A stretch of DNA of 42,790 nucleotides from Mayamaea pseudoterrestris (lineage: Eukaryota), in contig BROI01000017.1 of the NCBI GenBank assembly GCA_027923505.1, forward strand, positions 682,001 through 724,790, in the 5' to 3' direction. Below the pieces are notes generated by a model, which saw only the letters and a list, made by a program, of their open reading frames with translations, searched no databases and was not told where the DNA came from. The position numbers and the translations under genes were made by a program. Numbering within the stretch: the stretch's first letter is position 1; the number at the start of each line of letters is the position of its first letter. Positions 20,564 to 26,094 of the stretch are shown here, in pieces.

Positions 20564-22183
20564 TTATGCACATCGCACAGAATTTCGGTGTATTTGCGAC
20601 AAGTATTTAAGCGACTCGTGCGCCGTTGCCCTTGCTTGAGGATCAATGACGAGCATGCGGCAAAGCAAGTGAAAGAACCATGCGTCGTTGGGGTCTCGGA
20701 CAATGCTCGACAATGTTTCGGCCTTGCGCACATACGAAGCGCTACTACTACGTAGCACGGTGTTTATACGAAGCATTCGCCCAGTACGCTCATCAAAAAC
20801 CTTTGGCACGATAGCTTCCTTGCTTGACGCGAAAGCGTCTTTGATTAACCGAGTCGGAAACGTGCCAATGACTTGATCCATCAGAGCCAAATGCTCGCAA
20901 CTATCATGCGTCGCAAACAAGAGCTCGCCTTTGTACAATTCCACAAGGAGACAGCCAGCACTCCAGACATCACTTGGCATGCTCCAACCCGTGCCGAGAA
21001 TAACTTCCGGCGCGCGATACTGTCGCGTATTAATGACGGAGCAGCGCTTGTCATCGTCGTAGCAGGCGCTTCCAAAGTCGATGAGTTTGATTAGCGTCGA
21101 CTCTGGAACACGCTGATTTTGGTAGATTGTCTCTCGATCATTTGTCAGTAAAATGTTTTCCAATTTGAGATCCGTGTGTATCATTTGAAAGCTGTGCAAA
21201 AATTCCAACGCTTGAAGAAGCTGAATGGCCACGTCTTGAACGACAATCATGGGAAACGGAGAGTAATCGTTGCGCTTCAAAAAGTCGTACAAGGACGGAC
21301 CAAGACTTTCAAATGCAAGGCAGTAGTGCCCATGAAAGGTAAACGAATCAAACAGCCGCACACAGTGCGTCAAACCTCGTCCGCCCCGTCGATTTACATC
21401 TTGTACAATCTTTGCCTCAATGAGCGCCGACTCGTAGTATCGTTTCACTGCGCGCACAACCTTGACCGCCACACAATTCCGACGCTTCAAATCCAAGCAG
21501 TCAAGCACTCTGCCAAAAGTGCCCATTCCAACCTCCTTTAGTACTTGATATTGCCTGCCAATCATACTGCCTGGATCACCCTTATAGTGCCCAGAGTCGT
21601 CGTTTCGACTGGACTCGGACGGAGATTCAATGGATCTTTTCCGGTGCTGTCGTGAGGATGTGTTTTTGGCATGCTTCAAATAAAGATCATCTTGATAGTC
21701 AACACTCACGATGCCACTCCGTCGATGAATTGCAGGTGCATGGGCAGGTGCCTCCAGTGGCGGCGAATTCGATTCTAGACGCTGTCGCTTCCTTCTGTGA
21801 TGATGGCGTCCTTTCCATTCGTCGTGACCATACTGTTGGTACCGTTCCAAAGCTAATTCGCGATGCGGTTTGTCAAACCTTTCTCTCTCTTTCGCTTGCA
21901 CGCAATGATAATCGTGTTGCTGTTGGTGGTGCCTGCACCTCCTGCTAAAGAATTCGGCTCGACGACTGCCATGTGGCGACGATCGGCTACGCTCTCTTTG
22001 CCGTCGTCGGTGATCATGATAGTCAGAGTATGCTCGTCTATGCGAAGACTCTGTGCTGTGGTGCTTTGGGTAGTCCTTATTGTATGCTGAACCGCCACCA
22101 GGCTGATGGTGTCGAAGACGATCAAAATTCTTTGTTGGAGATTCGTCTTCTCGTTGCCTTTGACGGTGTGATCGATCGTCCAT
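20564..22183 (-). CDS. CLK/LAMMER dual-specificity protein kinase
   Basis: Arg/Ser/His-rich N-terminus, DDSGHY, GMGTFGRV, VAVKVVR, HTDLKLENIL, IDFGSA, TRQYRAPEVILG and LAMMER-type EHLALM. Start placed at MDDRSH (22183). Confidence 0.92.
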   Translation of the reverse strand: MDDRSHRQRQREDESPTKNFDRLRHHQPGGGSAYNKDYPKHHSTESSHRRAYSDYHDHRRRQRERSRSSPHGSRRAEFFSRRCRHHQQQHDYHCVQAKERERFDKPHRELALERYQQYGHDEWKGRHHHRRKRQRLESNSPPLEAPAHAPAIHRRSGIVSVDYQDDLYLKHAKNTSSRQHRKRSIESPSESSRNDDSGHYKGDPGSMIGRQYQVLKEVGMGTFGRVLDCLDLKRRNCVAVKVVRAVKRYYESALIEAKIVQDVNRRGGRGLTHCVRLFDSFTFHGHYCLAFESLGPSLYDFLKRNDYSPFPMIVVQDVAIQLLQALEFLHSFQMIHTDLKLENILLTNDRETIYQNQRVPESTLIKLIDFGSACYDDDKRCSVINTRQYRAPEVILGTGWSMPSDVWSAGCLLVELYKGELLFATHDSCEHLALMDQVIGTFPTRLIKDAFASSKEAIVPKVFDERTGRMLRINTVLRSSSASYVRKAETLSSIVRDPNDAWFFHLLCRMLVIDPQARATAHESLKYLSQIHRNSVRCA

Positions 22184-22605
22184 TCCTAGTCTTACTTTGA
22201 TGAAGTCTAAAGTCAATTAAAAAAGCTCTTCGCTGCGCAGTGTCGCGGGAACACGAGCAGGTATTGTACTTTTGGCGGTTATGATGCGTTAATGCGAGAT
22301 CCGAGCATGGCGGAAATTGCCGCTTGAATTTGAAATGAATACATCTACAGTAGGGACTCCAAAGGAGTATATTAAAAAGAGTAGTGACTTATAGCCTTAA
22401 GTATATGCACCGAGGGAACAGGCGATCGATTGCCTCGTCGACGAGACTCACTTGAATCTCGCCGCACATCTTGAGCTTGCGATCCATTCTCAAGAGTTTA
22501 CCCTTTGTATTCAAGTTCCATCTACTTCCAACGGCTGATCCAGTTATAGCAATTTTTTCAACTTTTGCTGAGCATTCTTGGTGCATTGACATATTCGCAT
22601 CAATC

Positions 22606-24691
22606 ATGAGCAGTCCAAAAGCGACATCAGTTCCAGCTCCTTCAACGTCAGCAGCAGCAACCGGCAGTGCAGCCGCGAGTAATGCAAATGCGGGCAAGAA
22701 AGCGGTTCATGTCAAGGTACGTTGATTGATGTCGCCGTTTCATTGATTGCGAAAATTGATGTCGAAGGGGTTTCAGATGTTAAGAGTCATTGGCACAATA
22801 GGTCGGTCATACCAAGGCAAAAGGTCGCTCTTGGTCATCCGACGGTCATCGTGCGTTGGAGCGGCTGTTGTTTTCGCGAGGGATCCCAATCGAACGAACC
22901 AAGGGTCTTCACTCGTGCGTCAGAGCGGTACTCAAGCTGTCACCCGCAGAACAGCTGCGTGACACTGGTTAGCTACCGCATGTTGCAAGATTGGTATGGC
23001 ATGGAGCTCAATGCTCTTGCCCTCAATCAATGACAACACTTATATCTTACTCTTTAAGAGTCAAGACAGTGTTTCCTCTTATCAAACGTGAATAAAAGCT
23101 GCGATTCCCCATAAGCGGCGTCGTTTTAGAGTCCAGTCACTGCTTTTTGGCTTCGTGCGAGTGCTGAGCCTGCAACGTTTTGCCAAATACTTACACGCAT
23201 TGCATCCTTCACTCTTTAAACACCCTAAAAGTGGTCTGGACGCACAATCGCGTTGGTGAGAAGATGAATCTCTTTTGGAGTGTCGTGTTGTGATGCCAGA
23301 CTCATGCGTCGAGTCGCTCACTTTATTTGCATCTCCTTCTCGCAGGGTGAATCTCTTTTGGAGTGTCGTGTTGTGATGTCAGACTCGTGCGTCGAGTCGC
23401 TCACTTTATTTGCATCTCCTTCTCGCAGGGACTTTTCCTTCTGCTGAAGCCGACGAGAAGTGCGCCAAGGCCAAGCAGCTCACACGCAACTGGAGGAGCA
23501 CCATGCGTCCCAAGCCGACGCGTGAATGGGTCATGGCGGAGCTTGAACGACTTGGTGTACGTGTCGTCTCTGGTCGTTTGGGTCGCAAAGGAGGAGAAGA
23601 CGATGACGAGTCGGAATCAGAAGGGAGGAAGAAGGGGCCAACGAAAGGAGTTAATATTTCCGCTGCAAGCATGCCAATGGAACGCACTAGTAGCATTGGC
23701 TGGGGCGGAGCAGATGCGGATCTGAACAGCCTAATGATGGCGCGTCGCAACTCGTCGCTTGGTCTTTCCATCATGAACGACACTGGTCGAGGATCTCTTG
23801 CGTTGGGCCACGTCATGCTTGACACGGGTGATCCAACCATGCCGCCTCATCGTCCGCTAGTTGGTGGTGGCGCTGCTGCAGCATATGAAGCGGCGCGCCA
23901 TGACCATTTTACGCAAAAGGCGTCAGAGCAGCAACGACGTGGGTCGAGTCTCGGTCTTGGCAGTCTCGGAGGTGGTAACGGAGGCATTGGTAACGTGGGC
24001 TTGTCGGTCAGTGCCAATCAGTAAGTACCCTGATGTAAAATTTTTAGCTGTGGTCAATTGCTTCATTTTAACGATCACCTTCTTGTCACCCCATTGTGAC
24101 AGGCACTACGAAATGTTAAAGCTTCATCACATGAATCTGTTGAATGAAATTCAAGAGACAACTCTCATGATGAACCTCTATCAGCAACAACAGCTGCAGC
24201 AGCAGCACCAGCAGTTGCAGGCGCAAGCTAATGTCGAAATGGGCAACGACCCCACAGGCTTGGCATTGATGATGCAAAGTGGAGCCGCTGGATTAGATAT
24301 GTTTGCTGGACAGTTGAGCCAGCGCGGTTCGCTTGGCCTAGGGGCACCCATGGGATCCGGTTTTGGGAATGCACAGTTGCAGTTGATACAGCAACAGCAA
24401 ATGCAGCAAGCCCTATTGCAACAGCAGGCTGCTCGAGCAACTGAAAATCCTCCGGCTCCTGCGGCAGGGCCTTTGGCGAATGAATTGGAAGGTCGCATCG
24501 CACAGCTCAAGCAGGATATTGCAAAAAGTGACGACGACACCATGAGCGAAAAGAAGCGATCACCGGAAGACACCGCAGAGGAAGAAGAGGAGAGTCAGCA
24601 ACTACCGCCTACCAAGCGCGCCAAAAAGGTTGACACCGATCAGGCGGAGAAATTGAGTGGCGATAAGTCCAAAGGTAGTGCGGCTGTTTAA
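22606..24691 (+). CDS. Q-rich putative regulatory protein (438 aa); proposed exons 22606-22716, 23232-23255, 23346 (1 nt), 23429-24020, 24103-24691
   Basis: The spliced product reads KKAVHVK-WSGRTIAL-GTFPSAEADEKCAKAKQLTRNWRSTMRPKPTREWVMAELERLG, then QHYEMLKLHHMNLLNEIQETTLMMNLY and poly-Q tracts. Total length is 1317 nt, in frame only with the extra G. The last two exons are solid; the 5' exon structure is inferred. Confidence 0.7.
23265..23430 (+). repeat. 83-bp direct tandem duplication of an intron 3' end, including the pyrimidine tract, CAG acceptor and the following GG
   Basis: Copy 1 (23265-23347) and copy 2 (23348-23430) both run TGAATCTCTTTTGGAG...CTCCTTCTCGCAGGG. They differ at only two positions (GCCAGA/GTCAGA; CTCATG/CTCGTG). 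Confidence 0.97.
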
Positions 24692-24811
24692 GTGGAGTGA
24701 CGGAAAGAGGGAGAGACGGAGGGTTAGTTCTTGTTGCATGTAAGCGAAACTACGTTTCCACAAATTACTCAATAAATTTTATGTTATAAGAATTCATATT
24801 CGCATTTACAG

Positions 24812-25741
24812 TTAAAACTTTTGCGGTCGGCGACGTGCCGTATACTTAGTGTCTGGCCGCACATCCTTCCCCTTCTTCCGCTGCGTATCCTTCTTATGAA
24901 CGATCCATTCCTTGGTCTTGACACCCTTCTTCTTCCTTGGCGGCTCCTTCGTTCCACTCCTAGATCTCGACGTCGAAACTGCGACGTGAACATTTGGCAA
25001 CTCGGTTCGTCCCACCATAGTTTCTACTCCACGTTTCTTTTGCGCGTTGCCTCTATCAAAAGAAAGGACGAGGTAGTGCTTCTTCGCCTTGGCCGAGTTT
25101 GGATAGTCGACAACGATACCACCTGTAAAACCCACTTTGGTCGCCGTTTCACTAATCAAGACAGCTTGCTCGGCCGTTTCAGGATAAAATTGCAAAACAG
25201 CTCGACCGCCTCGCTTTAATACCGTGTAGAGACTAGAGAAAAAGCGCGTCAGGCGTCTACGAGGATTCTGTGCAGCCGAGTTGGAGTAGCACAGCCACTG
25301 CAGCGCCGAAATGGAAATACAAGCATCAAAAGTAGCTGGCCTAAACGGCAATCCAATGCCCATGTCATGATGTAGCAAGTCCCCAATGGATGGACCGACC
25401 ATTGCATCGTCAACTTCTTCGCTTTCAATGTCATCTCCTGACTCAACTTTGCCGCTTCCGTCTCCATGCATTCGTTCCTTGGCAACATTCAACATATCCC
25501 TTGATACATCAGCTCCAACCCATACATGCCCCTTTTCTTCAAGTACTTGTCCCGATAAGCCCGACCCGCAACCAATGTCCAAGACGAAAGCCGTCTGGTT
25601 CGGATCCAGTCGGAGCAGCTCAATCGCTCGCTCCGTAATCTCTCGCTGAATTCCAATCATACGCGAAGAAGAGTCATACTTGCGAGCTTCCTTCTCATTG
25701 TAAAATATAGCTGCATGTCCAGTCAATTCTGGCCGCGACAT
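24812..25741 (-). CDS. BUD23: 18S rRNA m7G methyltransferase Bud23/WBSCR22
   Basis: MSRPE...FYNEKEARKY.SSSRMIGIQ, LDIGCGSGLSG, FDACISISALQWLC, GFTGGIVVDYPNSAKAKKHYL and C-terminal RPDTKYTARRR. Confidence 0.95.
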   Translation of the reverse strand: MSRPELTGHAAIFYNEKEARKYDSSSRMIGIQREITERAIELLRLDPNQTAFVLDIGCGSGLSGQVLEEKGHVWVGADVSRDMLNVAKERMHGDGSGKVESGDDIESEEVDDAMVGPSIGDLLHHDMGIGLPFRPATFDACISISALQWLCYSNSAAQNPRRRLTRFFSSLYTVLKRGGRAVLQFYPETAEQAVLISETATKVGFTGGIVVDYPNSAKAKKHYLVLSFDRGNAQKKRGVETMVGRTELPNVHVAVSTSRSRSGTKEPPRKKKGVKTKEWIVHKKDTQRKKGKDVRPDTKYTARRRPQKF

Positions 25742-26094
25742 GGTAGGCACGGTAGTCACTTGGTTGTGTGTGCGACGACTGCAGATTGCACTGCCGATAA
25801 TAGTCGAACAAGCTGCTGTTCAGTCAAGCAGCAGGTGAGACAAAAATAAATGTAAACACTCTCTTCCTCTTGGTCTTGGAAAATGAGCTGCTAGTACTTG
25901 TAGTGCAAAGTGCAAGATGCAGCGAAGATTTGATCCAAACGCTTGATTCCATCGACGAGAGAAAGTGGAAAACGAATGGAAACGCCGTAATAACCGCTAC
26001 GACTGATTGAAACCGGTACGACGCTTGCGGCGCGGACGACGCTCGCGAAGATCGCAAAACAAGGGCAACCGTGTTGAACGAAGGGCTCAAAGCC

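Follow-up and report, generated by a model that had tools for sequence, protein, structure and literature searches.

We analyzed a 42,790-nt stretch of genomic DNA from the diatom Mayamaea pseudoterrestris (assembly GCA_027923505.1, contig BROI01000017.1, positions 682,001 to 724,790; hereafter the window, with position 1 as its first letter) and focused on a gene on the forward strand at 22606–24691. Its product is a 438-aa protein that is conserved among diatoms and specific to them, and it very probably contains an expressed one-nucleotide exon between tandem-duplicated introns. In addition to the sequence itself, we used the contigs of four (X1–X4) of the seven public sequencing runs found, aligned over 22550–24750. 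These are Logan contigs assembled from 31-letter words, not raw reads, and the runs were called DNA-like (X1, X2) or RNA-like (X3, X4) from the behaviour of their contigs only, the kind of X1, X3 and X4 not being on record. The layout of the gene and of the repeat within it is as follows:

22606..22716, forward strand: exon 1, from ATG to ...GKKAVHVK, ending in phase 0; read from the sequence, with a joint in RNA-like contigs and GKKAVHVK common to the orthologues
22717..23231, forward strand: intron 1, 515 nt, GTACGT...AAAAG, phase 0, with a joint in RNA-like contigs; its position is conserved in other diatoms
23232..23255, forward strand: 24-nt micro-exon, WSGRTIAL (WAGKTIAL in orthologues), preceded by AG at 23230-31 and lying inside the joint-carrying RNA-like contigs
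23256..23345, forward strand: intron A, 90 nt, GTGAGA...CGCAG, with a 90-nt skip in RNA-like contigs
23265..23347, forward strand: repeat copy 1, 83 nt, matched with 0 differences by an 83-nt contig of run X1
23346, forward strand: single G, the proposed one-nucleotide exon, with which the Gly codon GGG of L-G-T-F begins, in the context CAG/G/GTGAAT
23347..23428, forward strand: intron B, 82 nt, GTGAAT...CGCAG, kept in 140-nt RNA-like contigs and absent from 58-nt mature contigs
23348..23430, forward strand: repeat copy 2, 83 nt, with 2 differences from copy 1
23429..24020, forward strand: exon 4, from GG ACT TTT, (G)TFPSAEADEK..., to ...SVSAN + CA; RNA-like contigs cover 23428-24020 and then continue from 24103 on
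24021..24102, forward strand: last intron, 82 nt, GTAAGT...ACAG, phase 2, with a joint in RNA-like contigs
24103..24691, forward strand: exon 5, (Q)HYEMLKLHHMNLL... to the stop TAA at 24689-24691

In genomic DNA, introns A and B are two canonical GT-AG introns that stand exactly 1 nt apart: GTGAGA (23256)...CAG (23345), G 23346, GTGAAT (23347)...CAG (23428). Each has its own GT, its own CTCAC with a pyrimidine tract and its own CAG, and none of these signals is interrupted. Judged from the letters, the likely branch site of intron A is the candidate CTCAC with its A at 23320, 25 nt upstream of the acceptor; the counterpart in intron B would lie near 23403. Reading of the sequence confirmed the coordinates that an initial annotation, made from the letters of the window, had given for the micro-exon, the donors, the acceptors and G23346. 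The same annotation had described an 83-bp duplication of the intron 3' end with two mismatches, which was recovered by two routes. Tandem Repeats Finder reported one array at 23265–23430 (period 83, 2.0 copies, 97% matches, 0 indels, score 318), and a base-by-base comparison found 81 of 83 positions identical, the mismatches being 23296 (C vs T) and 23304 (A vs G). This likeness of the two 83-nt copies is far beyond chance. The repeat unit consists of 81 intron nucleotides plus the first two Gs of the exon. From the sequence, its ends are sharp and the flanking bases differ, so that there is no microhomology. The donor GT of intron B straddles the boundary of the copies, its G closing copy 1 and its T opening copy 2 (...CAGGG/TGAAT...). 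Besides the two copies, no match of the intron longer than 15 nt occurs in the 42.8-kb window. The original intron may be an introner, a member of a transposon-derived family that would recur nearly unchanged in the introns of unrelated genes; the window offers no further copy of it.

RNA folding was compared with 200 shuffled sequences and gave z scores of -1.95 for intron A (8/200 shuffles as good) and -1.40 for intron B (19/200). For the whole unit at 23232–23460 the z score was -0.30, with 70/200 shuffles as good, and no convincing structure was found. At its 5' end intron A has 8 nt more than intron B; these are purine-rich and able to pair with the pyrimidine tract of the same intron, and the minimum-energy fold of intron A has an 8-bp terminal stem, which is not beyond chance (z -1.95).

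Three splice models of this region were translated. Direct splicing across 23256–23428 shifts the frame, and translation ends at codon 143, a stop whose last base is 23725; use of the first acceptor only, with intron B retained, leads to a stop at 23447 (codon 78). Removal of intron A, retention of G23346 and removal of intron B (model A+G+B) yields a coding sequence of 1317 nt for 438 aa and is the sole open one of the three. This agrees with the initial annotation, which had predicted premature stops for the first two models and an intact 438-aa open reading frame (ORF) for the last.

Ten full-length orthologues were aligned, including five MMETSP transcript models and two sequences from EukProt. 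All ten read KKAVHVKWAGKTIALGTFP, with the fuller motif ...GKKAVHVKWAGKTIALGTFP[SA]xEADEK..., and the residues K29 to P47 are invariant across them. KWAGKTIALGTFP is likewise present in a Fistulifera solaris model (P0043), where the N-terminal sequence before it is unrelated. The A+G+B product matches the orthologue block ...WAGKTIALGTFP..., whereas the other two models end at the stops given above. Of the 151 alignment columns without variation among the ten orthologues it preserves 141, and on the strength of this conservation the gene looks functional. As the orthologues read KKAVHVKWAGKTIALGTFP, the frame WSGRTIAL + G + TFPS... is correct, and it is one base short for a direct GT-AG splice. 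We also considered a micro-exon read in another frame (...VWTHNRV-G...), which would bring the 173-nt splice in-frame; this was ruled out by the orthologues, all of which read WAGKTIALGTF. A search with the exon-4 translation returned 140 proteins at E values up to 0.01, and all named ones are from diatoms. The public protein model of this gene (P0003, hypothetical protein, 368 aa, 100% identity) starts at the internal Met of MRPKPTREW (23501–24691); the 70 N-terminal residues ahead of it are missing, with the invariant WAGKTIALGTFP block among them. A one-nucleotide exon that gene finders are unable to pass is the likely cause of this truncation.

The two DNA-like runs, X1 and X2, come from two studies; their depth is even over exons, introns and flanks and they contain no spliced joints, which is the ground for their designation. 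In both, the contigs are unbroken through the donor at 23256, stop at 23294 and restart at 23401. These breaks are explained by the fact that 31-letter words are not unique when the 83-nt unit stands twice. A 60-nt contig of X1 (23318–23377) spans the junction of copy 1 and copy 2 at a depth of 32.5, compared with 41.8 and 36.6 in the flanks. The depth at the junction is near full and not half, and the duplication is therefore present in the reads; X2 has no contig on 23295–23400 and is uninformative on the repeat interior. At the G runs of the donor (23255–57) and of the second acceptor (23428–30), neither X1 nor X2 shows an inserted or missing letter. A 90-nt skip was found in 0 contigs of X1 and 0 contigs of X2. 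At the contig level, the X1 junction contig and the unchanged G runs in X1 and X2 thus bear out both the two copies and the G counts on which the initial annotation had relied.

Some further differences between the window and the runs, or among the runs, lie outside the repeat. At 22648 a T in the window stands against a C in the contigs of X1–X4. The position opens codon 15 in the non-conserved N-terminus, where TCA (Ser) becomes CCA (Pro), and the T is either a residual assembly or polishing error or a minor allele. Within intron 1, variants between run contigs occur at 22842, 22935 and 22946–22947 (A/G, A/T, GC/CG), together with an AAT insertion behind 23185, a pattern that fits two haplotypes of a diploid. 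A CAG repeat at 24182–24214 has 11 copies and encodes poly-Gln; the depth spike of 198.8 on it is due to short, loose-ended X2 contigs from elsewhere in the genome that were placed there.

X3 and X4 share the study and the organism code of X1. Four spliced joints are present in both and in none of the DNA-like runs. In X3 and X4, exons 4 and 5 are covered at a depth of ~26–28, compared with ~3.5 for introns 1 and A and 0.35–0.38 for the last intron. The joint from 22716/17 to 23232 skips 515 nt with GT..AG and corresponds to intron 1 in both runs. From 23254 to 23345, a second joint skips 90 nt with GT..AG (cut +1) and corresponds to intron A, at a depth of 14 in X3 and 11.8 in X4. It sits in one 140-nt contig per run, which contains the end of exon 1, the micro-exon, G23346, the whole of intron B and the start of exon 4. 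The third joint, from 23255 to 23428, skips 172 and not 173 nt and is found in one 58-nt contig per run (depth 8.6 in X3 and 11.9 in X4). A skip of 172 nt means that the mature mRNA reads TTG + GGG ACT, which is the predicted junction. Finally, the joint from 24020 to 24103 skips the 82 nt of the last intron with GT..AG (depth 27.9 in X3 and 26.1 in X4). The contig of exon 1 plus micro-exon has a depth of 20 and 18.3 in the two runs.

A joint for the 173-nt direct splice is absent from the contigs of all four runs. In X3 and X4, no inserted G is listed at 23428–30, which would be a sign of intron B removed with intron A retained, and no contig runs into intron A after splicing of intron 1; the RNA-like contigs break at 23256. 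Accordingly, the junction TTG+G+GGACT foreseen by the initial annotation and a form with A removed and B retained are both present in X3 as well as in X4.

The best explanation of these data is a one-nucleotide exon that is spliced in two steps, and we regard this as highly probable. Intron A would be removed first, joining the micro-exon to G23346 and leaving TTG-G/GTGAAT, which would be an intact 5' splice site. Intron B, carrying the copied branch and acceptor elements, would be removed second, so that G23346 would be kept and the frame (L-G-T-F) restored. Only canonical splice sites and two ordinary splicing reactions would be needed. The steps would have to be sequential, because two spliceosomes cannot occupy a 1-nt exon at once, and sequential intron removal is likewise argued for in the case of Arabidopsis APC11 (PMC4674806). 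Use of the intron A acceptor is directly shown by the contigs with the 90-nt skip. The contigs point to removal of A before B. We infer that the donor of intron B is used, that the retained base would be 23346 and that the B-retained form would be a productive intermediate. Intron B is still present in about half of the steady-state transcripts from which intron 1 has been spliced out, a share large enough to suggest a slow or frequently failing second step.

Several points weigh against this two-step explanation. Contigs drop rare forms and their depths are rough, and X3 and X4 belong to one study. The B-retained form, with its premature stop, may be a by-product that leads nowhere, and it is from contigs that the order of removal is deduced. 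The retained G is not assignable by sequence, as 23256, 23346 and 23428 give the same mRNA. The aligner labels the mature joint GT..CA, and the same joint reads TG..AG one place on; an aligner is unable to represent a 1-nt exon. A single-intron state from before the duplication was not found among the orthologous loci described below, all of which are distant (best identity ~60–66%). Moreover, when one copy is deleted from the window, a GT-AG splice gives TTG + GGACT, which is still one G short.

The aligner's label bears on a one-step alternative, in which a single 172-nt intron with non-canonical ends, GT..CA (23256–23427) or TG..AG (23257–23428), is removed and the B-retained form is a side product of a cryptic first acceptor. 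Both the label itself ('skips 172, GT..CA', with one letter fitting either side) and the early stop of the B-retained form at codon 78, as expected for a dead-end product, are in line with it. However, it is general knowledge that such dinucleotides are essentially unknown for the major spliceosome, and two canonical introns yield the same product. The canonical 173-nt GT-AG splice, an expected companion of the one-step route, is in no contig. Contigs of the A-removed form reach depths like those of the mature form (14 vs 8.6 in X3, 11.8 vs 11.9 in X4), and the one-step route leaves this abundant use of the first acceptor unexplained. Once intron 1 is spliced there is no A-retained contig, which indicates that the acceptor of A is the route actually taken. 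Altogether, we consider removal in one step improbable. Another possibility concerns the DNA rather than the splicing: a hidden allele or paralogue without intron A (TTGG/GTGAAT...CAG/GG, with one phase-1 intron) might be the expressed copy, and the assembled allele a null. Unspliced RNA of such an allele would equal the A-removed contig and its spliced RNA the mature junction. The published strain of the species is described as diploid (PMC9724779), and the intron 1 variants differ between run contigs, so contigs do hide one allele at simple variants. Yet the 90-nt skip is in 0 contigs of X1 and X2, the DNA contigs are unbroken from 23256 to 23294 where the RNA contigs break at 23256, and the copy junction of X1 is near full depth (32.5 vs 36.6–41.8) and not at half. 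Retention of intron B (~12–14) is also four times that of introns 1 and A (~3.5), which would be odd for a plain unspliced allele. We therefore judge a hidden allele to be very improbable.

An assembly artefact, that is, concatenated haplotypes (an alternative raised by the initial annotation itself) or a G lost from a homopolymer in a Nanopore-based assembly, is already largely refuted and hardly credible. What speaks for it is that the published assembly of the species was built from Nanopore reads with Illumina polishing, that the heterozygosity of 2.97% reported with it (PMC9724779) is similar to the 2.4% divergence of the two copies, and that the window is not error-free, with T at 22648 against C in four runs. 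Against it, runs from two studies yield short-read contigs that end where the repeat begins and ends, and X1 holds the copy junction, whose near-full depth speaks against concatenated haplotypes in particular. There is no gap or insertion at 23255–57 or 23428–30 in X1 and X2, and the forms in the RNA-like runs require copy 2 downstream of the first acceptor and G23346. One DNA run may have polished the assembly of the window, which limits the independence of the DNA evidence.

The two-step explanation leads to the question of how the intron pair arose. When the orthologue alignment was used to scan metagenome contigs, 46 loci (L001–L046) were obtained, of which 38 hold WAG[KR]TIAL and 8 are partial without the motif. 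In all 38 (38/38), GTF follows directly in frame after WAG[KR]TIAL, and none (0/38) has an intron at the L^G site; the best of these loci are ~60–66% identical to the window gene. KKAVHVK is contiguous in 20/38 loci, which are spliced or intron-less upstream. In the other 18/38, non-coding sequence and ag/TGG precede the W codon, so that these loci reveal genomic structure and have intron 1 at the matching phase-0 site. At 95% nucleotide identity these genomic-type loci fall into 17 clusters, and ten of the 18 loci are on contigs of 5 kb or more. Comparison of intron number and phase, as suggested in the initial annotation, therefore finds no L-G intron in any of the 38 loci, while 18 still carry intron 1. 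As far as distant relatives tell, the L-G intron appears to be specific to the Mayamaea lineage, and the micro-exon exists because the new intron landed 24 nt after the old intron 1.

The last intron (before HYEMLK) is not universal: Q-H-YEMLK is contiguous with upstream coding sequence in 10/18 genomic-type loci, L013 has ag at the same place as the end of the last intron in the window, and in 7/18 loci YEMLKLHHM is in no forward frame. Intron 1, unlike the last intron, is at the same site in all 18.

The initial annotation had proposed an intron birth by tandem duplication with a single-base exon. This proposal is supported by the repeat, the RNA junction and the orthologues, which have no intron at this site, but the duplication alone is not sufficient for the frame. 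Since the de-duplicated gene is one G short, duplication is not the whole history, and a further 1-nt G change has to be assumed. In the favoured sequence of events, tandem duplication of the 3' 81 nt of the lineage-specific intron and two exon Gs would have created a new donor one base past the first acceptor; the two-step route would then have become dominant and added a G, after which the G run of the donor or that of the second acceptor would have lost one. This order, with the G loss later than the duplication, is the most plausible one. It may also have been the other way round, the duplication rescuing an earlier base loss; for Fusarium, rescue of a base loss near a splice boundary by a cryptic intronic AGGGT has been proposed (PMC12940212). 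A fuller scenario can be drawn only tentatively, and we think it rather unlikely in its entirety: a young one-nucleotide exon, in which duplication made the two-step route the main one and loss of a G, rather than of the copy, repaired the frame, so that the ordered splice became obligatory, and in which a slow second step now brakes or switches the expression of a conserved diatom nuclear protein.

At the protein level, the diatom-wide family has ~70 almost invariant N-terminal residues and a second invariant block (NPNQHYEMLKLHHMNLLNEIQETTLMMNLYQQQQ) with poly-Gln after it. Pfam, searched at E values up to 1, gave no family for exon 4, exon 5 and a 215-aa ORF, and sub-threshold noise for two intron-1 frames. 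A profile search of PDB found no solved relative, the best match (E 0.0075) falling on a Gln-rich stretch. For the 71-aa N-terminal domain, AlphaFold2 predicted a beta-hairpin and two helices with a mean pLDDT (predicted local distance difference test) of 86.9, and in this model the split Leu-Gly would lie at the end of the second strand. With Foldseek, the N-terminal model had no PDB match at an E value of 0.001 or below. An AP2 domain and a P4-type integrase arm domain came up only at E about 5, and support for an AP2-like domain is therefore lacking.

The gene is flanked in the window by two intron-poor ORFs on the reverse strand. The 335-aa ORF at 24812–25819 resembles an S-adenosylmethionine-dependent methyltransferase, which we take to be of the Bud23/WBSCR22 type, and the long ORF at ~20650–22190 resembles what is presumably a protein kinase.

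One-nucleotide exons represent the lower limit of exon definition by the spliceosome. The only nuclear cases in the literature searched are APC11 of Arabidopsis and CYP621A of Fusarium, and neither shows how such an exon arises. The present case would extend them to the diatoms and would be the first 1-nt exon with a visible origin. It joins two questions that are usually separate, namely the birth of new introns and the splicing of ultra-short exons, and both are testable in a small, culturable and sequenced diatom. Frame-breaking intron pairs of this kind will escape gene finders.

Comparison with known systems relates the locus to both processes. Intron gain by tandem genomic duplication is described by the Rogers model, by Hellsten et al. 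2011 (PMC3265369) and for a potato RdRp gene in 2016 (PMC4974935). As in this model, tandem duplication supplies a second set of splice signals and a new intron at once, and the intron lies within a direct repeat. In the AGGT version, an exonic AGGT is duplicated, exactly one unit is spliced out and the mRNA is unchanged. By contrast, the diatom unit is almost wholly intronic and its donor was born at the junction; the outcome is a pair of introns around a 1-nt exon, in frame only with one more single-nucleotide change. The removed segments also differ from one repeat unit, which has 83 nt against 82 nt for intron B and 90 nt for intron A. Fungal stwintrons (Fekete et al. 2017, PMC5587772) are likewise removed by two consecutive canonical reactions and show 1-nt shifts of intron position. 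A stwintron reading was ruled out here, since no signal of either intron is interrupted, no arrangement with a split signal has GT-AG ends, and the introns adjoin with one exon base between them.

Recursive splicing uses ratchet points (Drosophila Ubx and others), which have AG/GT, a zero-length exon and very long introns. The likeness is that an internal acceptor leaves a 5' splice site for a second reaction, and a form with the upstream exon and intron B retained is indeed present in the 140-nt contigs. The diatom unit differs in that it reads AG/G/GT with one base kept, measures 173 nt as a whole and has a second step that alters the coding sequence; it therefore falls outside the definition of a ratchet point.

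The closest counterparts are the two single-nucleotide exons already mentioned. In APC11 of Arabidopsis thaliana (Guo & Liu 2015, PMC4674806), one nucleotide between two GT-AG introns is likewise needed for the frame and was missed by annotation, and the authors propose intron definition and a recursive-like order. APC11 is a plant gene, and the abstract and discussion of the paper (PMC4674806) do not say how the flanking introns originated. In the diatom, these introns are tandem copies with 97% identity and a partly spliced form is present in public RNA data. The one-nucleotide exon of Fusarium CYP621A P450 genes is described by its authors as the second example (Nelson & Syed 2026, PMC12940212). 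It shares the AG/G/GT motif, a G exon within a Gly codon of a conserved motif and support from public RNA reads. The Fusarium exon is kept across 20–24 orthologues and is therefore old, and its origin is given as unknown (PMC12940212). In contrast, the diatom exon is absent from 38 orthologous loci, and its AGGGT was made by a visible duplication junction. For diatoms or other protists, no nuclear 1-nt exon was found in the literature searched, the further matches being organellar or passing mentions. Among this literature, the diatom case would consequently be the third 1-nt exon and the first outside plants and fungi.

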